A stretch of DNA of 64,000 nucleotides from Mytilus edulis (taxonomy: Eukaryota), in contig NC_092348.1 of assembly GCF_963676685.1 (NCBI RefSeq), positions 89,652,001-89,716,000 on the forward strand. The letters are read 5' to 3'. Numbering within the stretch: the stretch's first letter is position 1; every line of letters begins with the position of its first letter. The notes under the pieces were generated by a model that was not told the origin of the DNA, made no database searches, and was given only the letters and a program-made list of their open reading frames with translations. The position numbers and the translations under genes were made by a program. Below, piece after piece: positions 8,130-29,915 of this stretch.

Positions 8130-9837
8130 CAAATGAGTAATCTAAATAAAGACCAAAATATGAACCTTTCAGAAAAGTTTCTTTTTAATTAGATTAATTA
8201 ATTACGACTTGGGTATCCCTAGTAGACAATAGACAATACTTTATTAATAAACCTCATAGGTGTGTAAGAGGACATCAGATATACACGTATACACATTTTT
8301 ATACTCAATACATTCACACTAAACATAATAATGCTAACGTTACATACATGGTTAAATATAGCAAAATGTCAAATTACAAACTACCATAACATTCAACTCA
8401 AAAAGACTAACAGAAATCTCAAGTATATCAATCATTAGAGAAACAGATTCCACCACTGTAATTTAATTGTCTCGAGTGAAGAAATATTGTAATACACTTG
8501 TTGCAGTTGTGGCATCTATATTTCTAAGACTCTTCCATCTTGCAATAGTATTTTTAAAAAAAAGACTTTTTTTCTACAAATTACACAAGTATTCCCCATT
8601 CTAACCTAAAAGTCAAATCGAAAGAGTTGGTAATATTTTGTTTAAAAAAAACGGAATGCCATATTATGGTCAACGTAATAGATACAAGTATCTTGTCTTT
8701 GTAATAGTACGGTGACAATTAAGGTAAATTTAAAAATTTAATGCACCGAAATACCTCACGGCTAATTTTGGTCTTATTTTGAAGATAAATATAATACCCT
8801 TCTATTAAGGCATGTCGTAGAATGCCAAAGTGGTGCAGATTTTTGATAATTACGATTAAAGGTAAAAAGGGGGGATTTTAAAAAATCTACATTTTTGGAC
8901 ATTTTGGACAATTTCTCGGTATTCGCTCATGATAACTGAGAAAAATTTCAATGGAAGCAAGCTCTAGGGGGGCTGTACAAATGCAGCTTCTAATATTTAT
9001 GCCAGATTGACATAGATTAGTGATGTTCACCACCCAAGCCAACATGGAAGAAAATGATAAAGATTATCTTTATTTACAAAAATTATCGATAAAAAATTTT
9101 TATATTTAATATTCAGCTTTTCAATAATATATTACAATATATAAAGATATTTTTGGGAAAGTTTTGTTAAGATAATATAAAGAATAAAGGAGAAGTTAGA
9201 ACTGTAAAGTTTACACCCGGTCCATGATTCAATGAAAAAATGATCAAATTCATTATTCCCTTTTTAAATAAAAAAATAATGTTGAAATTATCAAAATAGT
9301 CTTGATGCATAAATGTCAGCATGAACACGATAGTATATGAAGTTTTATTGATGACAATAGGTCAACCAGTGCAAGAGTAATATCATTTTGAAAATGCATG
9401 ACGATGTGCATCCCCCTTTTTTAAAAAACAACTCAAACAACAAAAAATCAAGAGTAGACTTTTGACTTTTACCGTTTTAAAGCACTATATATATCACACA
9501 AACACGATTTACAGAAATTTTGATACAAATGAAGATATTTTTGTATATTTCAATAACACTTGACATTATTATGCACGTCCGATGATTTGAAGTGGTTACG
9601 AAAAACTAACACAAAAAAGTACATGTTATACTTTTAAATTATTCGATAAAGTCTCCTGTTGGTTTACAAGCCTACCAACCACGTCAAGGTCGGAGACCAC
9701 TGGCAGGTTTTTTTTATAGTTTTTTTTAATTTATTTATTTTTCTATTTTTTTTTTTAATTTTATTTTCTCAACAATTTTCAACAGCGAAAAGGCTTCTAG
9801 CATCTAACACATGAAATATTGGGCATTGGGGTTCATA

Positions 9838-12800
9838 CTAATCATCATCCGCGTCGTTGCAATCTTCTAAAACAGTCTGATGAGTAAGCTGGTTTCTACA
9901 ATCATCACTGCCCTGACAACCACAAATGCTTGTGCATGACAAGTGTTGTTCATAACATACACATGATTTACCACAAATAGATTTGCCTTTGCATGTGCAA
10001 ACAAGGTCTTGTAAAAAGTCAGAAGACATTGGCCCCTCAAAATATAGTGGAACTATCGAGCTATTCCCCATTGTCCATCCATATTCAAGAGGTGATCTAG
10101 GTGGTGGTTTTGCAATATGGGCATTCATCCAGACGTACACTTGTAGGGATACTCTAAATATGTGTTGTCTGAAAGATGCTTTTGAAGGAGGAAGTCTCAC
10201 TAAGGAAGCATCCTTAGATAGCGCTGACTTCACTCGCAGTTTATTTAGATCACCATGTACAGATTGAGCCTTGACTTTGGGGTCATATAGATCAGCGATA
10301 AATTGTCTTCCCACTGTTACAGATGTTTTGATATCAGAACTAGCTAGATTGATCAAACTTTGATATCTTAATGGGTGTTGTTTTAATGTCTTGTATACTG
10401 TCTTTTTGCCTATTCCAAAGAAAGAAGACGTCGTGTCGCATCCCGTTAGAGCGTGATTAGCTGGTAATGTACTAGAAACCACTGGTCCAATGGCATTGTA
10501 TATATCGTGTACAGGTATAAACCGTCGGGCGTCTTTGGTTGAAGAAACGCATCCTGTCTGGAACCACAATTCATCAATGTTTGTCATTTTGGGAAAATAC
10601 CTTATACACAGAAGTAAAACATCAGTGTCCGATGATTTTATTACAATGCGACCTCTGGAATTGCTTTTTATTAGCTGTTCATTAGCAAACAGAGACTGTA
10701 GAATGATTCTTGTATCTGCCTCTTCCTGTGTACTGAACAACTGAATACAATCAGTAACAGTTCCGGCATAAATTTGTTTAACAGTCTCTGGGTTTTGAAA
10801 ACATCCAGCTAAGAATAGTTCGTCTTGCTCATTCAAATCGAATTCATTGAAGTGTGCGAGCGCATAGTCACCCAAAAATCTTAATAATGCTTGTTTATTT
10901 TCCGATGCACATAGAAATTTCTTCCAATCTGTAATTGACCTACCTTCAATGACCTGAAAAATCTTACCACCATTTGAAATAGACCGCCTCATTCTTTCTG
11001 CTGATTTTGTAGAATGTTCTACGTCATACCGATCAAACACGTCTACGACACACCCGAAATTTTCAAAACTTGCTATTAAAGTTCTAAAGTAGTCCTTGGC
11101 CAAATCTCCAAAACTGTTGTACCTTTTTACAAAAAGACTTTGAACAATACCCATGCCATCTCTGATAAGGATTGATCGATTCTTATCATACGGTGGAAGT
11201 GTGAAAGAGGTGCACACCTCTTTTTCCAATAGATGAATGAAATCTGCTTTGCATGATTTCCTCATCAACCCATCGTCATGGAAAATGGATGTTGGTATTC
11301 TACCGATGGGGTAAGCCAAAACCTTTTCAACGGTAACTTCGTCTCGGACATTTGCAAGGGCTAAAGCTCTTCGAAAGACAAGCTCGGGATTAATATGAGT
11401 TTTTACAATATCGCCAGATCGACATTTTAGATTGCATGGCTTTGCCATGTCGTCAAAGGTTTTGAGTGCAGATTTAGAAATTGGGGAAAAGAAGTCGCGA
11501 GTTTCGTTGTCTTTGAAACAACCATCTACAAAAGATTTCATCGATTTTTGTCCTCGATCTACAGAATTCAGCAGCGAATCTTCAACTTCTCTACTGGCAT
11601 GCAAACCTGTTGCAATGTTTATTAGCGATTTGGGACATTCTTCAATGTCGAATATCTGTCATATTATTTTGAACATGCTCAATAAGATCCTTCACTTGCT
11701 GCTCATCGCGTTTCATCGCTGTCGGTCTACTCTCTTCGTAATTTTCGTCAGAGCCAATAGCAATTTCAGACCTTTTCCTCATTTCAGAAGCGTACCTTGC
11801 AAGAATGTGCCTAGTAAAAGTCCAACGAAGAAGAGCAGATTTATGTGTAGTTAATCCGACTATACCGCCGTTTCCCTTCGAATCTTTGATTATAGTCTTC
11901 TCTGTTGCCATATCACTCCATATGCCATTGAAAACACCAGGCTTTTGTCTGACTGCAAACTTTCCGGACATGAAAGCTGAATAAGTTTCTTCTGGGAGAT
12001 TCAGCATGTCAATTAAATAAGTTGGTGTCCACCTAGCATAATTTGTCTTGTTTGCAATGAAGAAATATGGCAACATAGAAGACACGGATTGGAGGTGTAA
12101 AGTCCAATCTCCATCACGTTCTGCTTTGACATTCATTAGCATAACTTCAACGGCTCGTAAAAACATTTCCCAAAATTTAAAAGTTGGAGATGCTCTATAA
12201 GAAAACTCTCTGAACTCCGAAATCAACGGGGATAACTGTTCCCGGAAAAGAATTAAAAATTCAGAGAGATCTAATACCTTTGTATTAAGGTCACTGAATG
12301 CATTATGACAAGAAAGCATTGTTTGCCAGAACTTTTCGTCTATGTTAGCAATTTTTCGTTGGTTTGAACACCATTGAAAAAATTTCTTGAACCATAGTGC
12401 CATCACAGTTTCATATGCTAATGTGTAAGCTCTAACACCGCGATTAAACTGCTTGCCTTGAAGAATCTGATCTACAGTACATCCTGCATATGCACCCGAA
12501 TCGACCAATAAATCCCGAAGCCCAGCTAATGCCCATATTTTGCCTATTGCTGAAAGGTAACACGAAACCATGTGAAACCCACCTAATCTAACAACGTGTG
12601 GGTGAAAAATCTGAGGCATAGGCCACTTTACTTGTTGAGCTATGGCATAAAGCTGTTGGTCGAAGGTCTGTACTGGGTTATTCTGACCTGCGGCCTTTGA
12701 CATTTCTAGGCATTTCACCATTGTCGTATACACTGTCGCCATGTCAGCAGGTTTTGCGTCTATGATTGGAGGATATGCAACGACGACATGAATGTTTTTT

Positions 12801-14093
12801 CGGTCGGAAAGTCTTTTATGGAAGCCTGTCCAAAAAGGTATTATTTGTTTTTTATCATTTTGAAACCAAGGTAGTTCAGCAATGTCGCGTGTAAGTGATC
12901 GGAGCAATACCCAAGCCATATCAGACACGTCAGATTTATTGGTTGCACATGATTCGATTTGACCGTATGGCTCGGTACATCTAGGTGGGCCGAATCTTTC
13001 TTTAGGCTTACAGAAAGGCAAACATGACATGAGACTAGAAGTGTTTTCATCCAGAGCGAGGGATCTTTCTTGGCCGCGTTTTATTTTCACGTTAGCTAAG
13101 TCTGTCTGAAAAGTCGGATTATTATCAACCTGAAAAACTGCACGAGCCATAGAATGGAATGTGTTTTTACCATCAATAGTTTCTGCATTGATATCAACGT
13201 TGTCAGACCCTTCTTGAATGAAGTCTTCACCTGAAATTTTAGGACATATGCCATTGGGGATGTATGTTTCATTTTGGGAACTTATAATTTCATGGTTTGC
13301 TGAACTAGTCAGAAATTGTCTAACCTCAGTGTAAGACGCACAAAAGCCATGTGAATGTAAAGTTTCAATAAGATTTTTAGAACCATATTCATGATGCAAC
13401 TGAAGAGCCAATGATAAACTAAAAGGGGTGAACTGTTTTTTATGCAGAGATATCACACACTCGGCTAAAGCAATACATTTCCGTACCGTATCACCTGAGA
13501 GTGAATTGAAATCATTCTCCATATGAAAATAGTTATCATCTATTAATCTGGCAAGAAAGTTTATCAAAGAGGTAGGTATGAATTGTAAAGCCGTAGGGAT
13601 TGAAACTTCAGAAGGAGATGGATAAAATTCAGCCGAAATTTTGAAGGATTGTCAACTGCTTCTCAAAATTTTTGCCGCATCATGTAGGGTCTGATCTTCT
13701 TGATGTATGGAATCATTGACAAAACTGGTTTTCATCTCAGAAAATTTTAATTCCGCTTTTAAACTACTGGAAGCGCGAATAGCCTCAGAAACACTGATAG
13801 AGCTACTGAAAATCATATTTGATTTACCCTGTCCTCTTTGAGACTGAACAACAATGCGATCACCGTAGTGATTTTCCAGTTTGTGTTGCAGTTTATCAGT
13901 TGTATATCTACTTCTAATTTCTTGTGGAAGAAAGGAACAATATGTGTCTAATAAATTCGACAAAGAAAATGCTTTCTTATTAAAAAACAGATCATCGTGT
14001 AGAACTTCCGTCAGGTTCTTGAAAGCAATATCATGCTCCGACTCATTTGAAACATCATCAGAAGGTTCCCTTTTCCAGTTTAGCATATAGTTA
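9838..14093 (-). pseudogene. Academ transposase-XPG nuclease-Cys8/CXC polyprotein, central and C-terminal part (disrupted)
   Basis: Transposase motifs GSDNVD, TFDQQLY, RLGGFH, WSDMATEK. XPG/H3TH motifs DGMG, VFDRY, EEADTRI, SSDTDV, LTGCDTTSSFFGIGKK. Terminal CTCKGKSICGKSCVC..CTSICGC. Lesions: in-frame TGA at 13652-13654 (ILRSS*QSFK, same frame as the 641-aa ORF) and a frameshift near 11652 (MTD/FDIEE..LINIATG). Confidence 0.88.
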
Positions 14094-14524
14094 AGTAGTA
14101 TGAAATGGGGTCAGTCACCCACCAAAAACCCACCGGAAGCCACGTCACAGCTAATCCTCTTAACTATGACGTTAAATCCGGTCTATAATCTCTTAATCCT
14201 CTTAACTGCTACTTAACATCCGGGTTATAATCCTCTTAACTGAAGTGGGTTAATCTCTTAATCCTCTTAACTGCTACTTAACATCCTGGTTCTAATCTTC
14301 TTAACTGAAGTGGATTAATCTCCTAATCCTCTTAACTGCTACTTAACATCCTGGTTATAATCCTCTTAACTGAAGTGGATTAATCTCTTAATCTTCTTAA
14401 CTTGTACTTAACATCCTGGTTAAAATCCGGTGGGGGGAAAAATTAACGGACATGTTTTTTAATCCCCCCTACCCTCCTACGTATTATCTTGTAAACGTGG
14501 CATACACGTTGAGACATGCACGTT
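14094..14524 (+). repeat. Polinton left TIR with internal 65-bp tandem repeat
   Basis: Reverse complement of ~26784-27215 with few mismatches. Repeat units start at 14186, 14251, 14316 and 14381. Confidence 0.95.
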
Positions 14525-14639
14525 AACATCCTAAAGTTTAATCTTGTAAACGTATAATCTAAATGTAAAAAGTTTATAAACTAAGAAAAACGTTTACTAT
14601 ATAGCATACATCATTAGTAATTTCATAAGAACAAACAGT

Positions 14640-15248
14640 ATGAATCTCCAAAATTTTAATATGTATACACTTTTAAGAGAAAGAGAACTAACAGGGAAGA
14701 TCAGACGATCACGAAGAGGTCCCAAAAAGACTGCAAATTTGATAAGGAACAGGGTTGATAAACTTCATCATGAAGAACTATCTCGGTGTCCAGTAGAAAC
14801 ATGGCTTCTGAAAAACGGTTACATTGTTTGTATTCTATACAACTTTGAACACCACCCAGAGTTTATTGAAGATCTATATTTTTGTGGATGTTACTTTGAT
14901 GCAGTGTTAGCAGACTACAAGTTTATGGATCCTGTCAACTACCAATAAGAAAAAAATCCATGTATATCATTGACATGTGTACAACGGTCCTTTTAAGGAC
15001 CAACAAATCATTCAAAAAGAGTCTATTATTGTTGTACATGATCAGTTCGTTTTTCTTCTCCGACGAATATGAAATATCTACAAAAGGTTCACAACTTGTT
15101 TATTTTCGAAGAAAAGAAAACTAGATTGTATATTTTATTACTTTCAATTGATAAACATACATTATTTCAACTAAAACAACAATATGATAACAAAAGTTTT
15201 CATATTGAACATTGGAAATTACATCTTCTTAATGAAATTCTACTATAA
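14640..15248 (+). pseudogene. Polinton accessory gene of unknown function, probably frameshifted
   Basis: 102-aa ORF 14640-14948. Coding-like frames continue after apparent shifts near 14943 (IRKKSMYIIDMC..) and ~15110, ending at TAA 15248. Confidence 0.5.
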
Positions 15249-15304
15249 AATATAGACATATATATATATTTTGTGTATTTAAAAAAAAATATATTTCGAG
15301 TTAA

Positions 15305-15536
15305 GATGTCAGAGAGGATGAGCACAGAAAACCTTCAAACAAAGTGGTGTTTTTTCGGACAGAATGTACCAAAAGCAGAGATCGTGTATTTTTGTCAGAT
15401 GATAATAGTCTTCATAATTGTTATTGCGGCAGTTGTTAATTTATCAACACAAAATGGGAGTATAGAACTATGGGTTAGTTTATTAAGTGGTTGTACTGGT
15501 TACATTTTACCAAACCCTTCTATAAATAAAATATAA
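15305..15536 (+). CDS. Small two-helix membrane protein of a type seen in Polintons
   Basis: EIVYFCQMIIVFIIVIAAVVNLS and LWVSLLSGCTGYILPNP hydrophobic segments; first ATG at about 15305. Confidence 0.7.
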
Positions 15537-15964
15537 ATGAGATTCACATAAAAAGAAGGGAGGAAAAAAAGTATTCGAGTAACCCTCCTTCTAACCACGT
15601 GACCGAAACGTTCACCATACGTTTCGTTTATCTCTTAATGAATCATCATGAACAATTTAAGCCGCTACCACAACTATAAAAGCACACAGTTATATCAATG
15701 GCACAGGCACAGGTTGATTTATCCAAATAGGTGTACGGTTGTGACTTTGATCACTTGCATACTGATTTATTCAAGAAACAGATCGAGTGTTTAATTGATG
15801 AAACAACAAAAGTGGTGGTGAAGAAAAGAGAAAACATACTCGAATACAGCTTGTTGTTAAAGGGGAAAAGATTCCGATCACTAAAGAAAATTGGACGAAA
15901 CTGTGTTATCTAAAGGACAGCATCTTATTTTTTCATTCATTTATAGACGAACACTGATAGTACA

Positions 15965-16371
15965 ATGGTGGCAATTAAAGTTGGTATGGAAAAAAGACTT
16001 CTTTCAACTATATTACTGTTTTCTTTTGCTGAATTATTGGATGAAATGGTGCAACAATTATCAAAGAAGTTTTGTCAGGGATGCAAAGTGGAACATGGAT
16101 CACAACATAGACACACGAATGTTTGATGGATAGTGAACTAGATAAACTCGAAAAACATTTTGATCAGGCGTTCTGCGAGTTTAAATACAGTCACATACTA
16201 GGAAAATACAGAGAGAATGTGAGAACATTGACCTTGGAAAATAGTGTCGTTTTAAACTTTTTCATTCTTCATGTTTTGTTCATGGACACGCTCCGATCAG
16301 AAAAAATGAAAGTGAGTGTTTATAATTTAATGGAAAGGAAATTAAAACTTGAAGGACGTTTCACACAGTAA
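15965..16371 (+). pseudogene. Polinton accessory protein with CxGC..HxSQxxHxC motif (frameshifted)
   Basis: MVAIKVG..KKFCQGCKVEHGSQHRH, then an extra AC in ACACAC at ~16112, resuming ECLMDSELDKL..GRFTQ. A possible splice acceptor at 15947 suggests an upstream exon. Confidence 0.6.
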
Positions 16372-16499
16372 TATTGTATTTTGTGTAAATATATGTATAT
16401 TTCATTGAATAAATTTATATTGATGTGGAATTTTTTGTTGTGTATTTATTTTCTGGTAAAGATACAAAATGTTATATCATTTCATTAGTTTTCGTATTC

Positions 16500-16692
16500 A
16501 TTCGTATATTTCCGTATGTATATATATTTCCGGTAGTATTCGGAAACATTCGTTTATTTCCGAATGTATAATTATTTCCGGTAGTAGTCGGAAACATTCG
16601 TTTATTTCCGAATGTAAAGTAATTTCCGATCATTTCCGGAATCGTTCGTTGATATCTGCTTTTTCATTCCGGAATTATTGGGTTGATTCCGT
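16500..16692. repeat. ~45-bp tandem repeat rich in TTCCG/CGGAA inside the Polinton
   Basis: TATTTCCGGTAGTATTCGGAAACATTCGTTTATTTCCGAATGTA twice, plus degenerate copies. Confidence 0.75.
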
Positions 16693-16947
16693 ATTTTACT
16701 TCATTGGTTGCATTTTATTGTGTACTTCATTTCTTTTTTCTGGTTATGTATTTTGTTTCTTTTTTTTCTTGATGGTGATTTATTTTGATTCTTGTTTCAC
16801 TCTCTGGTGGTATATTTATTTGTCAAATAAAATAAACCAAAATAATTAGAAACATCAGTGTATAAAACAAACACATATCTCGAAAAATAAACACAACGAC
16901 ATGAAGACAATTAAGGTGTAGACAACAAACAAACAAACAAAAAAACA

Positions 16948-17613
16948 ATGTGTGAAGACCAGGAGAAAGTGCTTTTACCATTTCAGTCACCGTGTTGTAT
17001 ACAAATAGTTGGACCTACTCAGTCAGGAAAAACCATGCTTACATATAAAATACTAGCTCAATCTAAATACCTATTTACAAAAACACCAAAGAAAACCATT
17101 TATTGCTACTCTGCATATCAGGATTTGTTTTCAGAGATGGAGAGGAAAATTGAAAACATAACTTTTCACGAAGGGTTACCAACTAGTGAGGAAATTGATA
17201 AATGGTCAGAAAATAAAGAACATATGATTCTTTGTCTTGATGATTTATTGTGTCAAGCTGCAAACTCTAGTGATGTTTTAAACCTTTTTACCGTTAAATC
17301 TCATCATTGTAACATATCAGTTTTGTTTTTGATGCAAAATATTTTCCCTCCTGGAAAATGCATTCGTACTATTTCGTTAAATGCGACATACATAATCTGT
17401 CTTAAAAACCAACGTGACAAACACCAGTTATCAGTATTAGGAAGGCAGATTCTCCCAGGTCAATTAGACTATTTCATGTCAGCTTATGAAAAGGCAGTTT
17501 CTTTAATATATGGATATATTATTATTGATTTGTCAACACACACAGATAAAAAATATTTATTGAGAACAAACATTTTCAAAGGAGAAGATCCAGTAATTTT
17601 CGTTCCGAAATGA
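16948..17613 (+). CDS. Genome-packaging ATPase (A32/FtsK-HerA family)
   Basis: Walker A GPTQSGKT, Walker B LCLDD, SHHCNISVLFLMQN, RTISLNATYI; intact 221 aa. Confidence 0.93.
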   Translation: MCEDQEKVLLPFQSPCCIQIVGPTQSGKTMLTYKILAQSKYLFTKTPKKTIYCYSAYQDLFSEMERKIENITFHEGLPTSEEIDKWSENKEHMILCLDDLLCQAANSSDVLNLFTVKSHHCNISVLFLMQNIFPPGKCIRTISLNATYIICLKNQRDKHQLSVLGRQILPGQLDYFMSAYEKAVSLIYGYIIIDLSTHTDKKYLLRTNIFKGEDPVIFVPK

Positions 17614-17924
17614 GTAAACAAGTTTTAGCCCATGTACATTTTTTATCACTTTTAATTTCATGTGAGGAAGAACAGAAAATTGCATTGTTGAAGACCATGA
17701 ACGATAAACAATTTCAACTTTTAGTTGAATGTTTTTTAAATGTGTTATGTGGGGTATTTCAGCTTAGTCAATCAGATAAAAAGAAACTCATGAGATATAA
17801 AAACATTATTCGGAAAATAACAGATAGAGAGACAACACGTATTCTAAGAAAAAAATTGTTACTTAAATATCGTAACATTATTTCTATCATTGTTAAACCA
17901 ATACTTGATACAATTTCAAAATGA
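17610..17924 (+). CDS. Basic conserved Polinton protein (putative virion core protein)
   Basis: ECFLNVLCG..LSQSDKKKLMRYKNIIRKI pattern; ATGA overlap with the ATPase stop. Confidence 0.7.
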   Translation: MSKQVLAHVHFLSLLISCEEEQKIALLKTMNDKQFQLLVECFLNVLCGVFQLSQSDKKKLMRYKNIIRKITDRETTRILRKKLLLKYRNIISIIVKPILDTISK

Positions 17925-18514
17925 CGAAAGAAATGATTCTTCTGCCAAAACATAGATATGAAAGTATAATACGAACAGAAAACAATGAAAGCGATAAACA
18001 AACTAGTGCTAAGGAAGAAATTTCACCCCGGGAGGATATTAAAACAGAAAAAGATAGTTCAGATGATTTGAACACTTTGATCGAGCTGACCATACCAGTG
18101 AAATACAGAGAAAAGGCAAAAACACTATTGCAATTTCTTCAGAGTCAGTCTACAATAAGTTGGAACAAACATGGAAAAGTTAAGATCAACAACGAAACTG
18201 TACCAAACTCTCATATTGTTGACTTATTGCGGGATGTTGTCATTCCTTATGGATGCAAACAACTACCAAGTGGACATGAAATATTTTATGATTTTCTTAA
18301 AAATATTCACATACCTATGGGACTAATTTCAAATAGAATGAGAAAACAACTGGTTCAATCTGATATACAAACAACAGAGGAAAATGAACAATTAGCTGAA
18401 AGTGAACCAGAGAAAAATAAGAAGAGGAAGATTAATAAACTTTTTGTTAGGAGGGAACTCTCGAGACTGTTTGAAGAAAAACCTAAACTAAAATGGAAAA
18501 GATTCAAACTATAG
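17921..18514 (+). CDS. Conserved Polinton protein of unknown function
   Basis: ISWNKHGKVKINNETVPNSHIVDLLRD..PSGHEIF..IPMGLISN..LKWKRF pattern; ATGA overlap with the previous stop. Confidence 0.72.
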   Translation: MTKEMILLPKHRYESIIRTENNESDKQTSAKEEISPREDIKTEKDSSDDLNTLIELTIPVKYREKAKTLLQFLQSQSTISWNKHGKVKINNETVPNSHIVDLLRDVVIPYGCKQLPSGHEIFYDFLKNIHIPMGLISNRMRKQLVQSDIQTTEENEQLAESEPEKNKKRKINKLFVRRELSRLFEEKPKLKWKRFKL

Positions 18515-18898
18515 CATCATAACTAATGAACAATTGATAAAATATGTTATTTTCTATGTCAAAATAAAGATGGATAAAAAAGTGTTTTTTGGTTTTTCTT
18601 TTAATTTTATTTCCATGTTACAATCTAAAAACTAACTTGAGTTGTTCCATATACTTTAATGTAAAAAATAAATCATAAAAAAAACAGCAGAAAAAAACAA
18701 TAAAAAAAAAACAACAACAAAAATACTTTCAATGTACAAAAAAACCATAATATATATTTATTTTTCATTTTCAGGTACAACCCCAATATTATACACTTTG
18801 ATTTGATAAAAAAAAACCTATAAAAACTATTCTTATGATTACTTTTAATAAGACTCTTGTAGTTGTTAGAAGTAACATCTTATCAAAATAACCTGAGT

Positions 18899-20037
18899 AT
18901 GAATGAGGAACTAGATTCTCTCCTGAGTAAATACTATTATGACGTTGGAGGACCAGCTTCATATGCTTCTGCCCCGAAAAACTATATCACATTGTAAATG
19001 CAGAGGGCAAAAGAGTTGGAAGATATAAAATAAGACGGTGGTTAAATTCACAAGATAATTACAGTTTACAAAAAACACCTCGTCGTTCTTTTAAAAGAAT
19101 AAGAGTTTACACAACGGGGATGAATAATTTGTGGGATGCTGATTTAATGGACCTAAAACAATTTTCAAAAGAAAATGAAAATTTCAAATACGTATTAGTT
19201 GTTGTTGATTGTTTTTCACGCTATCTTTGGTTACAACCATTGAAAAATAAAACGGGAGACGAAGTCACCTCTGCATTTAAAAAGATTTTCACTGAGGTAA
19301 AACCAGAAAAAATTCGAACAGATAAGGGACAAGAATTTCTAGCAAAAAAGACACAATCGTTATTTAAAAGTAACGGTGTCCGACATTTTTCGGCTCAAAA
19401 TGAACTTCATGCAAATTATGCTGAAAGGGTCCTACAAACTATAAAGAATAAAATTTTTCGCTTTTTCACAAAGAATAGAACTCACAGATATATTAACAAC
19501 TTGCAAAATTTTGCAAAAAGCTATAATGGTACTCCACATAGAAGTTTACAAAACATTGCACCTAAAGATGTTAATTCTGTCAACGAAAGTGATATCTGGG
19601 GGAAAATGTATTTAAGTAAAACAGAGAAGAAACCAAAAGAAATAAAAGTACAAACAAACAAAAAGAAACGGAGGAAAAAACAATTCAAATACAAAATTGG
19701 GTCTTTAGTTCGACTGTCAAATATTGCTCATATTTTTGATCGATCCTACAGCCAAAGATGGACGGAAGAGATATTCAAAGTGGTGCAAAGATTCAGACAA
19801 CAAAATATTGATCTTTACAGGCTTTCAAATATAAAAGGAGATGAATTTATAAGGGGGACCTTTTATGATAGTGAGCTCCAAAGAGTAGAGAAAGATGAAA
19901 ATAGTCTTTGGATAATTGAAAAAATTATAAAGAAAAGAAAAAGACGAGGAAAAACTGAGTACTTGGTTCGTTTTCAAGGGTGGCCTCCTTCGTATGACGA
20001 ATACATACCAGCAGAACAAATTCAATCTTTATCATAA
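18899..20037 (+). CDS. Retroviral-type (RVE) integrase with C-terminal chromodomain; 1-nt frameshift near the 5' end
   Basis: DDE motifs WDADLMD, RTDKGQEF, YAERV. Chromodomain IEKIIKKR..EYLVRFQGWPPSYDEYIP. The N-terminus MNEELDSLLSKYYYDVGGPASYASA(P) from ATG 18899 joins EKLYHIV.. only through a shift at GCCCCG 18971-18976. Confidence 0.93.
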
Positions 20038-20462
20038 TGGAACATATAATTTTCATTCGAAGTGATCAATCAGATGCATATTACCCTAATAATTCACCGT
20101 TCAAGTTCAAAGTGTGTTTAAATGAAGTTTTACAATTACAAGGTGAATGGAAACTGGGAATATTAGATTTTTACATTGATCAAAAAGTTACAAAAAAGAA
20201 CAATCATCAATTATACTTGTTTTGTGATGTATGCAGTGGAGTAAATGTTTTCCCTAATATACAATATTCACTTTTGAGAAGAATATTTCCCACGGATATG
20301 AGTACATGGAATTATATTTTTTCTTTTCCAATATATTTACCAGTAAAGAAAAACGAAATTCAAGTCTTAGAATTTCTTATAAAAGACGAACACGGAGAAA
20401 ACGCTTCATTTTTGAAGAATAATTTGTCGTTTACACTACAATTTATACCAAGCTTATTTTAG
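20037..20462 (+). CDS. Minor capsid (penton-like, single jelly-roll) protein
   Basis: SDQSDAYYPNNSPFKFKVCL..LQGEWKLGI, LYLFCD, SLLRRI, YLPV..IKDEHGE pattern; positioned directly after the integrase. Confidence 0.8.
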   Translation: MEHIIFIRSDQSDAYYPNNSPFKFKVCLNEVLQLQGEWKLGILDFYIDQKVTKKNNHQLYLFCDVCSGVNVFPNIQYSLLRRIFPTDMSTWNYIFSFPIYLPVKKNEIQVLEFLIKDEHGENASFLKNNLSFTLQFIPSLF

Positions 20463-20469
20463 CGCAGAT

Positions 20470-20865
20470 ATGACAAATACTGATAAAATGTACATTCCTA
20501 ATGTTAATCAATGGACAAGATATTATCAGAATGTAGTTAGTGGTCAATCAAATGCTTACGTAAATCATATGAAATCTGGATATAACAAAGGATCGCAATC
20601 GGGATCATTTATGATACCAATTTCGAATAAATCTTATCCAATTCGTGTAGAAAAAGAAAACAATTTTGTTGTGCGTTTAGTGTCACCTAGTGAACAAATT
20701 GTAAATCAAGCAAAAGAAGAGATAAAAATTGACGATGAGAGTATAAATAAAACGGACAGAAAGAGAAAATATCATCATTCGCCACAAAGCAGAGGAGGTG
20801 AAAAGAAGCCGAAGAAATCGAAAATAACTGTTAAAAAACATAAAAGGGATATATTTTCAACATAA
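20470..20865 (+). CDS. Polinton protein with basic C-terminus (putative core protein)
   Basis: YIPNVNQWTRYY, VRLVSPSEQIVNQAKEE, K/R-rich tail; TAATG overlap with the MCP start. Confidence 0.7.
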   Translation: MTNTDKMYIPNVNQWTRYYQNVVSGQSNAYVNHMKSGYNKGSQSGSFMIPISNKSYPIRVEKENNFVVRLVSPSEQIVNQAKEEIKIDDESINKTDRKRKYHHSPQSRGGEKKPKKSKITVKKHKRDIFST

Positions 20866-22171
20866 TGTCCTTGTTAACAAAAGAGAATTTTATTGAAGCA
20901 CAACCGTCAGAGTTTTTGAGATACCCCCATACCAAGTAGGTGTTGAAAGTATAACATACGAGGAATGCAGACCTGTTAGTCAAATAACTGCTTACAATCC
21001 TATAGAATTCGATCTATGTGCAAACAATGGTATGGACTATATTGATCTTAAAAGATCAAAACTATACGTGAAATTAAAAGTGAAAAAAGCAAATGGTGAG
21101 GATTTACAAGATGGCGATACGGTAGGACCTGTGAACTTATTTTTACAGTCGCTTTGGTCGCAATTGGATGTGTATATACAAGGACAAATGGTAACGTCTA
21201 GTAATACGTATTACCCGTATAAATGTATGATGAAAACGTTACTGCAGTATGGCCAGGACGCAAAGAGTACACAATTATCTTCTAGTCTATACTTAAAAGA
21301 TAGATATGGACACATGGATGAAATATCGACTAACACTGGACTGTATGAACGCAGAAAATTTATTTCTAATTCGAAAACATTAGAAATAGAGGGACCAATT
21401 TTTTCCGATATATTTGAGATGGATAGATACCTGCTAAATATGTTATTCCTTAAACTAAAACTATACCGCAACGATGCAAGTTTTTGTTTGATGTCTGGAG
21501 AAATTGATACCAACTATCATATTTCTTTGGAAGATGTCGTGATCAAGCTTTGCAAGATCAGACCTAACCCAGCTATAATTGTCGCTCATTCAGAAGCTTT
21601 AAAGACAACAAATGCTAAGTATCCTTTCACAAAAACCATGATGAAAAATTTTACAATCATGCAAGGAAGCACCTCTTTAATCGTAGAAAATGTTTTCCAA
21701 GATGTGAAACCAAAAAGTATTGTGCTTGGATTGGTTTCTTCAACTGCTATGTCTGGAGCATATACAAAAAACCCATTCAACTTTATGAATTATGATTTAA
21801 AACAAGTGACTCTGTTTTGTGACGGAATACCAGTTGATGGCATACCACTCAAACTTGATTTCAACGAGAATAGTGGTGCAACGAACGTTTCTCCTTATGT
21901 AAAAATGTTCGAAACACGAGGAAAGTGGTTGTTGGATACGGGGAATGAAATAACAAGGGCTGAATTCAACAATGGATATACGCTTCTATGCTTCAACTTA
22001 GAACCATTCTTTTCGGATACCAAATATCTTTCACTACTGAAGCAGGGAAAAATACGCTTGGAATGTCAGTTCGGTACGCCATTAACAGAAACAGCTGCCT
22101 TACTGATTTTAGCTGAAAATTATGGATACTTTGAAATAACTGAGAATCGACAAATAAAGATTGAACACTAA
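20865..22171 (+). CDS. Major capsid protein (double jelly-roll, hexon-like); frameshift near the 5' end
   Basis: MSLLTKENFIEAQPSE, then a shift near 20913 to FEIPPYQVGVE..CRPVS..PIEF..DYIDL. Further motifs NLFLQSLWSQLDV, YYPYK, KNPFNF, GYTLLCFNL. Confidence 0.9.
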
Positions 22172-22827
22172 CATTTCAATGTAAATTGAATTTATCATGA
22201 CTATAACTGTTTGTTATTATTGTGTAGATCTAAAAAAAATTATAATGTGTGCTTTACTAATAAATATATTCAAATAAACGAAAACAAACAACTGCGTTCA
22301 TTGATACATTATGTTTTATTTCAATCAGACAGGATGCAAAAAAAAAAACAGGAATAAAGAAAATATATATGTAAAAATACAATACATGAAAAAAGTAACC
22401 CAATTACCCTCAAACATACTAACGAAAACTATATACAATAAGTTTTAATAAAAAATATGATGCATCTACAATCTCCCTCACTATATGTAAAAATCATATT
22501 TAAATCACCACAAATTTTGATATACAAAAAAAATCCCCACTTCGTTCTCTTGTTATAAATACAAAAAGAAAAAACAAAACAAAACAAAACAAAACAAACA
22601 AAACCCCCAAAAAAATTAATGAATATTTAAATTTATAATTAAATACATATAAACAATAACCCTCAAATGAACAAATAATAACATCCCTCACTATATGTTA
22701 AATTAGTATTTAAATCACCACAAATCTTGATTTAGAAAAAAAAATTCAACAAAATAATATCACAAATACGAAATAGTTATAACAAATAAGAATTGAAATG
22801 TCTTTAAACGTTTTACATGATGAATGT

Positions 22828-25800
22828 TTATATGTTATCTTTATGTCCAAAGGCTCTCGTTGTCACACCATCATCTAAAATCCATCTTTTATCATCAAAA
22901 GGAACTAATGATTTTTTATTAATAGTTTTGGAATATAAAACATGGCTTTCGCTTCTTATAATATTCATTTCAGAACGTGTAACAGTTTTATCGAAAAGAC
23001 AATTTTTATACATTTCATGTTTAAGTTTTCTGGATGCAGTTTTTGTTACTCCTTTTGCAGTATGCTTTTCTCCACCTTCAAAAGAAAATGAATACATCTT
23101 CGATCTCAGTCCAACAAATTCACTTATTGGGGTTCCACTTGTTTCATCCTTGAATTTACCTATTACTTTTTTATTTTCGATATCATGTAAAAAATGTTCT
23201 GGTGGATAATCACTCGTATCATACATATCTTGATATTGATGCATATCTTCATACACATCTTCCGTTTCAACGTGATATAAAAAGCTATCAGTATCAGAAA
23301 AACACACACGAATTTTATCACCATACAGAGATTTCATATGGTTATAATGAAAATCGTACATCAAAAACTTGGATAAGTCTAAAATGCAAAAACCTACATA
23401 TATTGGTTGTTTCATTAAAACATTCACACGTTTTTTCGCTACTGCCACCAAATTTTCGTTAAATATTTTGCAAGATGCGTAGGATGGTTTCGCTGTTTCT
23501 TTATTAAGTTTCTCTTCCGTGTGACAAAGTTTTACATCTTTATGCTTGCGTGTATTGAGGAGAGTTCGACCAAAAATTGAATTATTCATCAGCTTATATA
23601 AACATTTTTCAAATTCATTCTTTGCATTTTTCCTTTTTTCTGTGTTAAAGTCTATATACTTCTTCAACCAGGGACATTGTTTAAACTTGAGTACTCTATG
23701 TATCTTTTTGATCTTCAATCCTAACTCTACGTATAGTTGTAAGTTTCTATAATGCACTATGTACTTTTCCTTGTCGTATAGGTTAGGAACGAGTTTTTCA
23801 ATCTTTGTTAAACATTGTTTTCCAGTTAAATTTTGCAATAATTCCTTTGAATACGGAGATAAATGTTCTACTTGAATATGCTTTCTTTCTGGAGCTAAGG
23901 GAAAATCCGAATGAGAAGAATGAAGTGACGAAGGATATTCAAGGTCAACTTCGAAAATGTATCCGTCTGAACCGTCAGCTTTTAATTTTGTGATATCTAA
24001 TTTTATTTTCTCCTCCTCGGTAAGCCAGTTGAAATGACCATACGGAAGACATTGAGACATGCTCCAACCATATAAATTATTTGCGTCTAAATAAGATAAA
24101 TAGGAAGTAGGTTCAGTTGGTTCATACGTATCGAATAAGTATGGATTGTTTGCTTTAGCATATCGATGAAAAATACTAGATACACCGCCTCGTATTCCCT
24201 TCTCTACAAACAGCATCATATCTATATCAGTGATTAAATCGAGTACAATTCCAGTTTTCTTCAGCATGGCACTCCAACTAAATCCGGGGGTGGTGAAATA
24301 ATGACAAGGATCCAAATCATAGTCGTGTAAAGAAATGTCTCTAAATTTTTCAAAAACATCTGCCAAAAGAGCTACATCCATTTTAAGATACACATCGGAG
24401 TATTCCCCCAATGTTTTTACTTTCAGTTTGTCCCACACTGTTTGCGCAAATTGATAATCTTCATCAGATATGTGAGTGTCTCCTAATTTGTTAAAAAAAT
24501 CTTCTTTGGATGGTAAACAAGGTTTTTCCAATTTCTGCTCGGTATCGACATAATCATAGGGGAATACTCCTTTTCGTAGCAATAGAGAAAATACATCTGG
24601 ATCCGGAAACGTTTTAGATAAGTAATTGAAATGTTTTTCTCCTTCGTCAGCCAGATTTTTTGTTAAAGTTGCCAGTGAACTGTTTAAAAATTGCAAAGAA
24701 TCGATAAAGCGGAGATTTCCTATAGAAAATGACATATATTTTTCTTTGTTGTGTGGAATAACAGTGATGTCTTGTTCCTTAAACTTTCCTATTTTACTCA
24801 TGATGAGATTTGCATCAAATCCTTTCAAATTATGAATAACAACAGGTATAAATTTCGGTATTTTGATCTGTAAATTGTAATTATTACAAGAAATGCCACG
24901 AATGAACCCAGTCACGTGATCGTGTTCCTTGACTTTGTAATTTTTGCTGCTGAAAGCTTTTTTACATACATAACATTTTTTGGCATATTTGTAGTCTAAT
25001 TTATCATACTCAGTTATTATCATTGGCTCGATGCGGCTAAGTATGTCTCTAATTTCTTTCTCCTCTTCAAGAAGATGACGGATAAAGTTCTCCACAACAT
25101 CAGGTCCACGGTATATGACGGGTGGTTTGTCGTATCGCTTATCAATTGACACTCTTTGATATCCAAAACTGTACGGTTCCATTTGTTGGTATGTAGTTGT
25201 ACTTGACATGTTTGGATTCGGATGACAAGTATCGACTTTCCTTGTTAAACACTCAAAATCAGCATAGATTACAAACGGAATTCGGGCGGTTTTCGCATAT
25301 TCTTTGAATTCCAGAACTTCTCCCTCCTTGGGAAGTGTAATTTTCTGAAAATCAAATTTTCCACAGTCTGCTTTATGCCTCTCTAGTTTGCATTTATCAG
25401 TAAATCCTTGCAAGCAAAGATAACAAAAAAAATGTTCCTCACGATGTTTCTTTGTCCTCGATAAAAACCTGTTAAAGTTGTTTATCAGTACATAATGACT
25501 TTTGTTGTTTTCTTTTAAATATAATATATTCACATGATGACAGAAGGTTTTCTTTGTGATGTATAACGGGTAGATTTCTCCTTCTTCGTATCCAAAAATG
25601 TTAACTGAAATAGTGGTATTCTGTTTTTCGAATTGTGATATTTGAGATAACGGAGTGGGATACTCGATACCAGTCATGTTAACTGAGTTAACAAATGGAA
25701 CATAATTCTCTACATTTTCTGGATTTTGTTGAAAGTTATGCATACTGGAAAGAACAGTCCATAAAAAACATTTGTTGTCCAAGTTCTGAATGTTGAGTAT

Positions 25801-26709
25801 ACAGTTCGATCTTTTGAGTGATGTTGGTAGTTCTAAATAACTACCTCCTTTTAATGGTTTGTACTTTGTGACGCACAGATCAAGTTGTAAAACCTCTTCA
25901 AGTTGCCATCCACTCCCATTCTTGATGAATTCTTCGAAAGAAATGAATATTTTTTGAAATCCTTTATTCAACTCGTGAGGTATTTCACTAGCACCAGATT
26001 GTAAAATGGTACTCACTTTAGTATTGAAATGCGGTTCAGCTTCGTCGTATTTGCCATCTGGTGAATATTTAATCATTCTTACATGTACACTCATATAAAA
26101 CTTTATATTGTTTTTAAGTAGTCTGTCCTCTAATATTTGCGCAATATCCACTTGTTTTTCTTTGAAAAATAACATCAAGTCATATCTTTCTTCATTGTTG
26201 CTGGGTTGTAATTGAATATTTTCCACACCATCGTTCAGAGCTGTTGCTGTTAACGATCTTTTCTCTCTTGCATTGCGTACTCGTTCCTCGGGAAGTTGGT
26301 CAACATCTTCTGTCCTCTGACGTTTACGGGGGGGTTGTACGTCGTCTTCCTTCTGTACGTTTTTCTTTACATCATGTTTTCTCTTCATATGTTTAGTTAA
26401 AACATCTTTTCTTTTCGTGGTGAAACCACAATGTTCACATTCATAGTTTATATTCGAATGGTTCTGTTGGTGTCGAATCAAATAAGCTTTTCTTGCATAC
26501 CTCATACCGCATGTTTGACACTCAAAATTTGATACATTATCTTCATCTGGAACACTGTCATATTTTCCCGTAGTAGTTTGATCAAATTGTTTTTCAGTTG
26601 GATTTTGCTGCTTAACTGATTGTAAGACTGTATTAAAGTCCTGCGCTGACAGTTGCTGTAACTTCTGTAACACATCATGTGGAATATCTTTTACCAGTTG
26701 GTCAATCAT
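22828..26709 (-). CDS. Protein-primed family B DNA polymerase (pPolB), intact, about 1293 aa
   Basis: Exo motifs YADFE, HNLKGFD, YLKMDV. Polymerase motifs YLDANNLYGWSM, KLMNNSIFG, SDTDS. N-terminal two C2H2 fingers, GSGW, DNKCFLW..HY, and an EndoVII-like insert. First ATG at 26709 (the track start 26730 is TTG). Confidence 0.97.
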   Translation of the reverse strand: MIDQLVKDIPHDVLQKLQQLSAQDFNTVLQSVKQQNPTEKQFDQTTTGKYDSVPDEDNVSNFECQTCGMRYARKAYLIRHQQNHSNINYECEHCGFTTKRKDVLTKHMKRKHDVKKNVQKEDDVQPPRKRQRTEDVDQLPEERVRNAREKRSLTATALNDGVENIQLQPSNNEERYDLMLFFKEKQVDIAQILEDRLLKNNIKFYMSVHVRMIKYSPDGKYDEAEPHFNTKVSTILQSGASEIPHELNKGFQKIFISFEEFIKNGSGWQLEEVLQLDLCVTKYKPLKGGSYLELPTSLKRSNCILNIQNLDNKCFLWTVLSSMHNFQQNPENVENYVPFVNSVNMTGIEYPTPLSQISQFEKQNTTISVNIFGYEEGEIYPLYITKKTFCHHVNILYLKENNKSHYVLINNFNRFLSRTKKHREEHFFCYLCLQGFTDKCKLERHKADCGKFDFQKITLPKEGEVLEFKEYAKTARIPFVIYADFECLTRKVDTCHPNPNMSSTTTYQQMEPYSFGYQRVSIDKRYDKPPVIYRGPDVVENFIRHLLEEEKEIRDILSRIEPMIITEYDKLDYKYAKKCYVCKKAFSSKNYKVKEHDHVTGFIRGISCNNYNLQIKIPKFIPVVIHNLKGFDANLIMSKIGKFKEQDITVIPHNKEKYMSFSIGNLRFIDSLQFLNSSLATLTKNLADEGEKHFNYLSKTFPDPDVFSLLLRKGVFPYDYVDTEQKLEKPCLPSKEDFFNKLGDTHISDEDYQFAQTVWDKLKVKTLGEYSDVYLKMDVALLADVFEKFRDISLHDYDLDPCHYFTTPGFSWSAMLKKTGIVLDLITDIDMMLFVEKGIRGGVSSIFHRYAKANNPYLFDTYEPTEPTSYLSYLDANNLYGWSMSQCLPYGHFNWLTEEEKIKLDITKLKADGSDGYIFEVDLEYPSSLHSSHSDFPLAPERKHIQVEHLSPYSKELLQNLTGKQCLTKIEKLVPNLYDKEKYIVHYRNLQLYVELGLKIKKIHRVLKFKQCPWLKKYIDFNTEKRKNAKNEFEKCLYKLMNNSIFGRTLLNTRKHKDVKLCHTEEKLNKETAKPSYASCKIFNENLVAVAKKRVNVLMKQPIYVGFCILDLSKFLMYDFHYNHMKSLYGDKIRVCFSDTDSFLYHVETEDVYEDMHQYQDMYDTSDYPPEHFLHDIENKKVIGKFKDETSGTPISEFVGLRSKMYSFSFEGGEKHTAKGVTKTASRKLKHEMYKNCLFDKTVTRSEMNIIRSESHVLYSKTINKKSLVPFDDKRWILDDGVTTRAFGHKDNI

Positions 26710-26734
26710 ATGTTGGTTAAAATTTTCCAACTTG

Positions 26735-26772
26735 AATGAATGATTGAAACTAGTTCACATTGAATTATATAC
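26735..26772 (-). promoter_or_regulatory. Candidate TATA/Inr promoter of pPolB just inside the right TIR
   Basis: Minus strand GTATATAATT, with TCATTCATT about 25-30 nt downstream, ahead of ATG 26709. Confidence 0.45.
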
Positions 26773-26783
26773 TAAGGGGTTTA

Positions 26784-27215
26784 AACGTGGATGTATCAAC
26801 GTGTATGCCACGTTTACAAGATCTTACGTAGGAGGGTAGGGGGGGATTAAAAAACATGTCCGTTAATTTTTTCCCCCACCGGATTTTAACCAGGATGTTA
26901 AGTACAAGTTAAGAAGATTAAGAGATTAATCCACTTCAGTTAAGAGGATTATAACCAGGATGTTAGGTAGCAGTTAAGAGGATTAGGAGATTAATCCACT
27001 TCAGTTAAGAGGATTATAACCAGGATGTTAAGTAGCAGTTAAGAGGATTAAGAGATTAACCCACTTCAGTTAAGAGGATTATAACCCGGATGTTAAGTAG
27101 CAGTTAAGAGGATTAAGAGATTATAGACCGGATTTAACGTCATAGTTAAGAGGATTAGCTGTGACGTGGCTTCCGGTGGGTTTTTGGTGGGTGACTGACC
27201 CCATTTCATACTACT
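26784..27215 (-). repeat. Polinton right TIR
   Basis: Inverted copy of the left TIR, including the 65-bp array. Confidence 0.95.
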
Positions 27216-27793
27216 TAGTTAGCAATGCATGTTGAATGATACAGTGCCTTGTCCTTGAAGTTCTCCATAGATAGTAAACTTACCATTTGATAGTCAAACT
27301 TGTCTTTTGCTGCATTTAATATATTATCAGCACGTTCAACAGACTCGACTCGCCTTAATTGCTTATCTCGCTTGTAGGACTTTTGTTTACAGAACAAACA
27401 TTTAGACCAGTCTGATTGTAATACCGTTGAGCGTGTTTTAACACAAGTTGGTTCAAACACAGAATGGTTTGCACTCGATGTTGAGCATACTTCTTTCCCT
27501 ATTTGAAATGTTTCCAAGTTTTTTTTACTTGTATATGCTTTATAACACGACCTATGATATTTTATTTGTTCTAATGGAATCACTTTCGTTGACTCAAATT
27601 CATTATAAAGGCGGTGATAAACAATACCCTGTCTGACATCTATTGCGTCTAAAAGAGTAGTCTTCCCCTTTTCTGTTGCATTTGACAAATTTTCATAAGT
27701 AGATATTTGGCAAATAACGCATAATTCCCAATTACTATTAAGCCTAATCCTTTTTGGAACTGAGTGAGCAAACTTAACAGGACTCGTGTCCAT
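27216..27793 (-). pseudogene. Academ polyprotein N-terminus, cut off by the Polinton insertion
   Basis: Two WxxCxxC..YHxxC zinc-binding units. Removing 14094-27221 restores the continuous frame YHSTCIAN-Y-MLNWKREP. Confidence 0.9.
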
Positions 27794-28715
27794 TATTTTC
27801 CGGGTTATTTCGGGGGTGTACCAATTTGGTTTAAAATTAGTTTATTCAACAAAATCAACAAGAAATAAAACAACTAAAAAACACTAACACATAAAATCTG
27901 TATACTCAGTCAAAAACTATACATTGACATTGATATGAATATGTCTTACTATAGATGAAATTAAAGAAAATACACAGTTTTATTCTCTGAGGAAAAAACA
28001 GCAAATCATAAGTCAGGGGAAAATATGAAAAGGGAAAGCAACAAGACTTAATGAGGTGAAAATCAAATAGTAAAACTGCTAAATGATAAGTATTATAAAA
28101 CGGCCCGAAAAACTTAATTTGCATGCTTTTTCGAAATTGTATGCATTAAAACTTCTTGCATATTGATTATTATATTGTTTTTTGTCAAAATGTACCACTG
28201 ATGATATATATTAGAAATGTTATATACTTTGTCAGACGGTAACATTGAAAAAAAATGACATAAATATTTGAAAATCGTCCAATTCACTTAATTTATATGT
28301 TCATATGATAAGAAAGTTTGATATCAAATTAAAGCTGATACATTACTCTTTCATCTGATAACAACTTTTGTGATGATATCTTCATTCGGGAATTAGTTAT
28401 AAACATTCCCGTTTTTGAAAATGAAAAAGAAAAAAATCGGAAAGTCACACTTTATCGCAATTTTACAAAAAACTGCACCTCGGGAAAACTCTACGACAGG
28501 GCTAAAATGAAAGTATAATGTTAACTCTATCTTCATGTGCATTTTCAGCCGTGAGGTATTTCGGTGCATTAAACTCCTTAACTAAGCGACTTTTCCTGAT
28601 TTGTCACTCCACTATAAAGAATAACTCTGAATCAAATAAAAAATTCTCTGAAATCGATATTACCAAGATGCTTGATTTTTTTTTATTACAAAATATTTGG
28701 GACGTTTGGATCGTG

Positions 28716-29915
28716 TATTAGAGTGACCAAGCCAACAATTTTTCAACTTTAATGGACTACCCTACCTGCAGGCTAAATTATGACTTTTTGGAAAGAGAAA
28801 TGCTTATTATTTAATTTTTGCCTGGTCGTAGAATTGAAATATGGTGCATTTTTTTTTTAATAAAGTCAAAGGTTAGTGATTGAGTTTTTCATAGTGTCAA
28901 TTTATTTAAGATGGCGTTCTAAAAAGTCTCCAAAAAATATTTAAACTGTTACTAAACAAGAAATTCATAATGAATTGAACTGTGACACTTCATTTCAGCT
29001 TAATATGAAAATAACGAAACGACCAAATGCACATTTTAAAGGGAATTAAGACTAGCAACAAAATGGAAGATTACTCGAATCTCAATTCATTTTTTTTTTA
29101 CATCGCATGAACTTCTAAAGATATATTTCTGAATTTTATTGCATTTATAAAAAGAATCGAAGTCAATTTGGATTTTGCTTTGCCAGTCACAAATATTTAA
29201 CAAGGCAATTAGAACAAATGAGTTTATTGAAGGACTAAAGTTACAGCGTTCATTCTAGCTCTATGAACTTTTTAGGTTTTATGTGCTTTTGCCTTACATA
29301 AAGCACACATGGACACCTTAGAAAGAGTGGTTGTATGGGTGTTTTTTTTAACAAAGGGCATGAAAACTTTCGAAAACCTGACCGATCAGTCATCGTTTTC
29401 ATCGTCGTCTTCTTCCAATATTGCTCGGTGATTTAAATAATTTCTACAACCATCAGACCCTTCACATGAACAAATATTAGTATACGCGGATTTCTGTCAG
29501 TTGCATACACGGTTGTTATTGCAAGCTGTTTTCCCTTGTCCGTATACGTACAAACAAGGTCTGGAAGGAAATCTACTGACATAGGTTCCTAAAGGAAACC
29601 CGAGAGCAAACCTTTTTGACCCTCCTACCAACCAGAGTCTTTGGAAAGTAAATGAAGTATGATCACTGGTTTAGCAATATGAGAGTTTAACCAAACTTCC
29701 GTGGGATGTGCTGTAAAAACGTGTTTTCAAATGGGGGAATTTTCACAAGACTTGCATCCTTTGTGGCGGTAAACTCCACCGTAGCTTGTTTAGATCATCA
29801 TGAAGATACCTGAACTTTCCCTTCGGATCATACAATGAGGCGATAAATGCACTTCCAATGTTAACGGCGATTCCTAATGTCCCGTTTGAAAACTTTTCGG
29901 ATTTGGCACAATTTT
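28716..29915 (-). mobile_element. Second, older degenerate Academ relic (3' terminus and C-terminal coding remnant)
   Basis: 28716-28870 resembles the TIR at 8705 (TTTAATG..TACC..GGCTAA; GTCGTAGAAT..TGGTGCA). 29390-29910 encodes decayed FIASLYDPKGK..DLNKLR and a CXC tail homologous to 9838-10330. Confidence 0.8.

Follow-up and report, generated by a model that had tools for sequence, protein, structure and literature searches.

A Polinton nested within the open reading frame of an AcademX-type transposon in Mytilus edulis

A 64,000-nucleotide stretch of the Mytilus edulis genome (assembly GCF_963676685.1, contig NC_092348.1, positions 89,652,001 to 89,716,000; hereafter the window, numbered from its first letter) contains a virus-like Polinton within the open reading frame (ORF) of an Academ DNA transposon. 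The question it raises is whether the transposon carries the Polinton as cargo, whether the Polinton favours such elements as landing sites, or whether the two were stacked by chance. The locus is a real and well-preserved case of nesting between two known types of element, a one-off, with both sets of ends and both target-site duplications (TSDs) in place, a readable order of layers, and lesions in both elements. It is very probably a three-layer stack of mobile elements in which the Polinton most likely arrived by one chance integration into an Academ copy that was probably already decaying. An ordinary pile-up, rather than a virus-carrying transposon, is most likely because the nesting occurs just once in the assembly.

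The outer element spans positions 8705-28614 (~19.9 kb) and the Polinton, at 14094-27215, lies inside its ORF. The structural components of the locus, including the terminal inverted repeats (TIRs) and the reverse-transcriptase (RT) repeat that received the outer element, are as follows.

8523-8700, plus strand: left half of a decayed fragment of a high-copy RT repeat, the target site of the Academ element
8702-8704, plus strand: outer TSD TAA, left copy (read from the window sequence; 3-bp TSDs occur in the family)
8705-14093, minus strand: 3' part of the AcademX-type element, with the left TIR from 8705, the 3' region and most of the ORF (95.6% to the full-length sister L113)
14088-14093, plus strand: inner TSD TAGTTA, left copy (read from the window sequence)
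14094-14524, plus strand: Polinton left TIR, with AGTAGT terminus and 65-bp internal repeats
26784-27215, minus strand: Polinton right TIR
27216-27221, plus strand: inner TSD TAGTTA, right copy (read from the window sequence)
27222-28614, minus strand: 5' part of the AcademX-type element, with the ORF start, the upstream region and the right TIR to ACTA (94.9% to L113)
28615-28617, plus strand: outer TSD TAA, right copy (read from the window sequence)
28615-28710, plus strand: right half of the RT repeat fragment, across which its paralogues continue

The outer element runs from TAGT to ACTA between two copies of TAA, and its TIRs are imperfect. The Polinton is 13,122 bp long, starts with AGTAGT and ends with ACTACT, and its two TIRs are the same at 423 of 431 nucleotides. 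A preliminary description of this DNA had reported four intact ends and two TSDs at these coordinates and had assigned the elements to Polinton and Academ, all of which is borne out, the ends, TIRs, TAA and TAGTTA being read directly. It had also stated that excision of 14094-27221 restores HSTCIANYMLNW in frame. This is correct at the insertion site, where the outer parts join to give 6,782 bp with HSTCIANYMLNW in frame across the site on the minus strand, but it does not extend to the ORF as a whole, which removal of the Polinton leaves broken by a stop codon (13652-13654) and a frameshift (near 11650) that the description did not mention.

The in-frame restoration is no chance fit, because sister Academ copies retain the empty site. 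Querying with the outer sequence on the left side of the Polinton site gave 40 matches, with 30 loci read, and a single uninterrupted copy of TAGTTA is present in 14 distinct sister Academ copies (29 non-window loci), five of which have an identical peptide across the site. These empty sites also confirm the proposal that Academ came first. The RT repeat beneath it has 2,125 candidates, the best other copies being 75-82% identical; RT motifs are present in the paralogues, and from its motifs we take the repeat to be Penelope-like. Twelve of 14 paralogues run on into 28615-28710, and the single TAA that paralogues carry at this site backs the outer TAA duplication. The order of insertion is RT repeat, then Academ, then Polinton.

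Contigs from four public runs contain the Academ form lacking the Polinton in all four, as a joint in three, and the Polinton ends in these runs are joined to other flanks. No contig bridging the right Polinton-Academ junction was seen in any of the four (32 of 84 pieces listed), which is not counted as evidence since contigs show presence and not absence. A joint between 8701 and 28615 in one of the four runs is compatible with an Academ-free allele or with a host-repeat paralogue; similar joints with 21-25 extra letters are host-repeat paralogues.

The assembly searched is a single haploid one of 1.37 Gb. Each Academ-Polinton junction 22-mer has one match in it by exact search, so that no second copy of the composite was found there, and junction and flank searches of this assembly found no composite at several loci with new outer TSDs. 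The Polinton itself belongs to a small family of close relatives: a search with the TIR ends gave 32 matches, all 32 of them scored, and in a census of the integrase 14 of 150 scored matches are at least 98% identical, with the next full-length matches at 59% or below. All 13 two-ended copies have perfect 6-bp TSDs, each different. The preliminary description had named a unique junction and random flanks of other copies as the pattern of a one-off nested insertion, and this is the pattern found, with unique junction matches and unrelated flanks around the other Polinton copies.

The outer ORF is left unnamed by Pfam and PDB sequence searches, and its 51 homologues are all unnamed or hypothetical. 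Two of its pieces were assigned from structural models.

9838-11658, minus strand: C-terminal piece, with a predicted FEN1/Exo1/XRN-like 5' nuclease fold and a Cys-rich tail (model, Foldseek)
11642-13651, minus strand: middle piece, a predicted DDE transposase with a helical insertion (model, VIA comparison)

The C-terminal piece is severed from the remainder by the frameshift. Its model has a predicted local distance difference test (pLDDT) score of 83.8, and its 11 Foldseek matches at E<=0.001 are all 5' nucleases (Rat1/Xrn, Exo1 and T5 flap endonuclease; E 2.7e-5 to 1e-3), pointing to an XPG/FEN1-type nuclease and not a helicase. The middle piece (pLDDT 90.5) has no Foldseek match at E<=0.001. 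The top 13 rows of its VIA comparison comprise ISCth4, Hermes, RAG1, Tn5 and Mu at Z 4.2-7.5, the best being a middling Z of 7.5 with a root-mean-square deviation of 4.9 and 263 aligned, and are consistent with a predicted DDE transposase domain.

TAG...CTA termini and a C-terminal cysteine cluster are hallmarks of AcademX, and it is by features such as these that the family was assigned. The termini are found in the window Academ and in family copies, and the cysteine cluster is present at the C-terminus of the outer ORF. Of 14 sister loci, 12 passed the filter, and in these the left terminal 60 nt match at 55-60 of 60 positions; the right terminal 45 nt match at 43-45 of 45 in all 22 sister loci. 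Ends could be paired, using 19 of 30 left-end loci and 18 of the 30 right-end loci, for 18 Academ-family copies, and a 3-bp TSD is present in 15 of these. AcademX elements are described as having a 3-4 bp TSD plus a nuclease (PMC10045372), and the window element resembles them in its 3-bp TSD and in a nuclease, instead of a helicase, beside the transposase. At ~6.8 kb it is near the 5.6-kb mean consensus length reported for Academ in bivalves, in which these elements have expanded (PMC10294476). The window copy differs from AcademX by its stop, its frameshift and the 13-kb insertion, and so lacks the intact ORF of ~1,620 aa that was taken as the mark of autonomy. The stop at 13652-13654 is private to this copy, being missing in all six sister copies that cover it, and the frameshift near 11650 is missing in L113 and in contigs from the four public runs. 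The window Academ is thus disabled independently of the Polinton insertion.

The outer element diverges from its nearest sisters by ~4% and the Polinton by 1.2-1.9%. Private differences number 80 in 5,750 sites of the outer element and 49 in 12,245 of the inner, and private non-synonymous differences 28 in 2,978 sites of the outer ORF and 13 in 6,308 of the Polinton ORFs, a ratio of ~4.5. If these differences represent decay since insertion, most of the Academ decay would predate the arrival of the Polinton, so that at least one of the two other lesions probably predates it as well.

The probable course of events is that the Polinton would have been placed by the rve integrase its family encodes, irrespective of Academ sequence and with a 6-bp TSD as in all 13 two-ended copies, that the Academ, up to then, would have spent the greater part of its time at the locus inactive, and that the composite would have been immobile since. 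Several points weigh against this account. As the sister copies of Academ are less numerous and more distant, the contrast in age is overstated by an uncertain margin. A single haploid assembly cannot reveal copies in other individuals, and an exact 22-mer search is blind to a mutated junction, a copy with which the TIR search would catch. Lastly, under a rough random model the presence of one of 14 copies in Academ has a probability of ~0.6% (the family as target) to 2.6% (all Academ transposase candidates), with target sizes roughly guessed and the case picked post hoc, any class of repeat being one that would have drawn notice.

The alternative that survives best, to which we nonetheless give a very small chance, is the one raised by the preliminary description, in which the 19.9-kb composite is an actual or potential non-autonomous Academ whose Polinton moves as cargo when transposase is supplied in trans. 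The outer ends are near-identical to those of the Academ family, and deletion derivatives of 2.3-4.8 kb with common breakpoints and their own 3-bp TSDs have spread, so Academ ends have worked in trans before; a 167-bp insert common to three of these derivatives moved along with them. Six matches in other Academ families keep full frames of 1,622-1,636 aa and have the TAG start and sub-terminal motif in common with the window family. Those families, however, are 53-54% identical to it over 200 aa and have different terminal bases, and the window family itself has no full frame among 150 scored matches (of 397 candidates), the longest being a frame of 1,517 aa with a 5' frameshift. The Polinton, moreover, needs no carrier because its family integrates by itself. 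Other Academ-family copies contain 11 passengers of more than 1 kb, up to ~19 kb, at differing sites, none of which is shared by two copies. With the junctions unique in the assembly and no large passenger common to two Academ copies, cargo mobilisation finds no support; large cargo in this family was gained after insertion and has stayed in place, and movement of the composite in trans is possible in principle and unobserved. None of the large inserts proved to be a Polinton, as they have no Polinton protein match.

Two arrangements among these relatives may be recorded. A sister Academ (L181:5636 to L111:7323, G000:C1) contains a 15.7-kb passenger with kilobase-long inverted ends, a long internal tandem array and no ORF of 250 aa. 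At L175 (G000:C12:12254225 and 12261137) another Academ family contributes a tail-to-tail pair of copies, of which one keeps an open frame of 1,636 aa.

A more specific proposal is that the locus represents the first step of a Teratorn-like fusion, with an integrase-broken Polinton between intact Academ ends that related full-ORF transposases could move. Teratorn, a piggyBac-herpesvirus fusion (PMC10175614, PMC5601938) called the first such virus-transposon fusion by a 2023 review (PMC10175614), is similar in having a DNA virus genome between the ends of a cut-and-paste transposon. It is described as retaining transposition activity and an active transposase, and such fusions as recurring across teleosts (PMC10175614). 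The window composite, in contrast, is single-copy, its transposase gene is destroyed and its virus family has its own integrase; neither occurrence at several loci nor a working transposase inside the composite, two marks of a Teratorn-like unit, was found. We regard the proposal as highly improbable. Were it true, the 19.9-kb unit would be a transposon-borne provirus with the potential to spread through mussel populations and, taken with the reverse nesting at C6 described below, the Academ and Polinton classes would carry each other.

A slighter chance attaches to the view that the Polinton family favours Academ elements, or sequence within them, as its target. The one Academ insertion, set against the 0.6-2.6% of the random model, speaks for it, as does copy C3, in whose flank a lone degenerate Academ-like end lies ~2.4 kb from the Polinton; C3 was rejected as a second Academ insertion because this remnant has no partner on the other side. 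Academ hosts just one of the 14 copies, however, and the 13 differing TSDs have no common sequence. The outer element finds no match, by DNA or protein, in 28 other Polinton flanks of 1.5 kb. An Academ profile made from one window frame and 42 homologues (43 sequences in all) matches both window flanks and none of 29 other Polinton flanks of 5 kb. Reciprocally, five Polinton proteins have no match in 42 loci of Academ copies, and the new Polinton flanks in the four public runs do not match the outer element. A proximity test used 142 integrase hits and 137 Academ transposase hits, each left from a set of 150 once unplaced contigs and duplicate pieces had been dropped; one of the 142 integrase hits, which may include non-Polinton elements, lies within 25 kb of a transposase hit (the window locus), against 0.75 expected by chance. 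For comparison, in a case of genuine preference virophage elements are reported to hold 91% of type 1 Ngaro elements (PMC8547959); this system (Ngaro in EMALE virophages) resembles the window in nesting a transposon with a Polinton-like virus, in the opposite order. The suggestion that Academ is a favoured landing site is therefore unsupported and, for this assembly, largely refuted, with one copy in 14, no Academ coding sequence in the 29 flanks and no enrichment.

Least credible is an assembly chimera joining two repeats: both parts are multicopy repeats, but the exact 6-bp duplication of a natural target seen in sisters, the AGT/ACT ends at both junctions and the copy-specific differences spread through all parts are features that a mis-join is not expected to create.

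The Polinton, for which we thus favour a chance integration, has the following genes.

16915-17613, plus strand: packaging ATPase, A32-like (Pox_A32 E 4.4e-4, under the curated cut-off)
17550-18514, plus strand: two accessory ORFs of 124 and 201 aa (no family match)
18943-20037, plus strand: rve integrase with a C-terminal chromodomain (rve E 5.6e-14, Chromo E 6.7e-8)
19998-20462, plus strand: putative minor capsid protein of 154 aa (by position; no database match)
20897-22171, plus strand: double jelly-roll major capsid protein (Atlas score 0.98)
22828-26754, minus strand: protein-primed B DNA polymerase (pPolB) with C2H2 fingers and an endonuclease-VII-like domain (1,308-aa open frame)

The integrase frame is broken near its 5' end (364 aa from stop to stop, where 10 of 13 sister copies have 390), as is that of the capsid protein (424 aa, against 444 in sister copies). 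The capsid Atlas score refers to clusters in which 24-30% of members carry PF21738 DJR-like, and the protein is 98% identical to one named from Mytilus edulis. In the polymerase Pfam found accessory domains only, and the 60 listed of 80 PDB sequence matches are zinc fingers; exonuclease and polymerase motifs were found by pattern, and their labels are presumed. The accessory ORF pair is a candidate only for what we presume, from position and size, to be a counterpart of the Cupiennin/GasderminX pair of adintoviruses, and the 154-aa ORF, which has no family match, is one we take by position and motif to be a probable minor capsid protein. A maturation protease is typical of Polintons, though not universal. 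No candidate was seen among the small ORFs of sister copy L067, and absence of a PF00770 match proves nothing since that profile, with one match genome-wide, is too insensitive. The 14 close copies document a young mussel Polinton family of 13 kb in which no protease was recognised. In its 13-kb size, ~430-bp TIRs and 6-bp TSD, and in its pPolB, rve integrase, packaging ATPase and double jelly-roll capsid, it is like the adintovirus-like Polinton/Maverick elements (10.1101/2023.08.22.554363, PMC8502044), falling within the ranges given for them of 13-25 kb, TIRs of 100-1,500 bp and TSDs of 5-8 bp (10.1101/2023.08.22.554363); it differs in having no recognised maturation protease, and the window copy also in its broken integrase and capsid frames.

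Sister Polintons themselves host a long interspersed nuclear element (LINE), a Gypsy-type RT/integrase ORF, a miniature inverted-repeat transposable element and a TAG...CTA element. The last, in the C6 copy (L075:4913-8739, G000:C6), is a non-coding TAGT...ACTA element of 3,827 bp with a TAA TSD and is Academ-like by its ends only. The LINE, 6.8 kb long with a TSD of ~14 bp, lies in the polymerase gene of the C3 copy (L077:2377-9189, G000:C3) and carries two upstream ORFs besides a 1,272-aa open frame for an endonuclease-RT. Minisatellite arrays with 50-bp and 80-bp units enclose two of the 13 two-ended copies, C6 (L001/L023) and C2 (L024/L025/L026). L025 and L026 share a flank of 1.5 kb, identical in both, together with 3.8 kb of the element, at a distance of 9.9 kb, reflecting either local duplication or an assembly artefact. 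The TIRs of the C6 copy (L023, L001) agree at 412 of 438 positions and are more divergent than those of other copies, with a perfect TSD, which suggests recombination between subfamilies. Opposed integrase genes 3-4.5 kb apart occur at four loci (C1:18801458/18805913, C2:40338709/40341528, C4:79128065/79132559 and C14:53142927/53147464, all G000) and constitute a palindromic integrase-bearing element family.

Near the composite, ~105 bp to its right, the window contains a remnant of a second Academ family (28721-28857 and 29396-29894; 86% to the 3' end of the L179 element). Farther on, at 43146-46433, there is a long foldback whose nested inverted arms are 90-95% complementary over ~3.3 kb.

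The literature searched, in which subscription papers and Repbase Reports were mostly lacking, yielded no account of a Polinton nested in an Academ, so that absence from print is not established. The significance of the locus is small, as repeat-rich genomes routinely contain nested insertions. It nevertheless provides a clean marker of relative age, with RT repeat, Academ and Polinton arriving in that order, and discovery of the composite at a second locus would add another example of a DNA virus carried by a cut-and-paste transposon.

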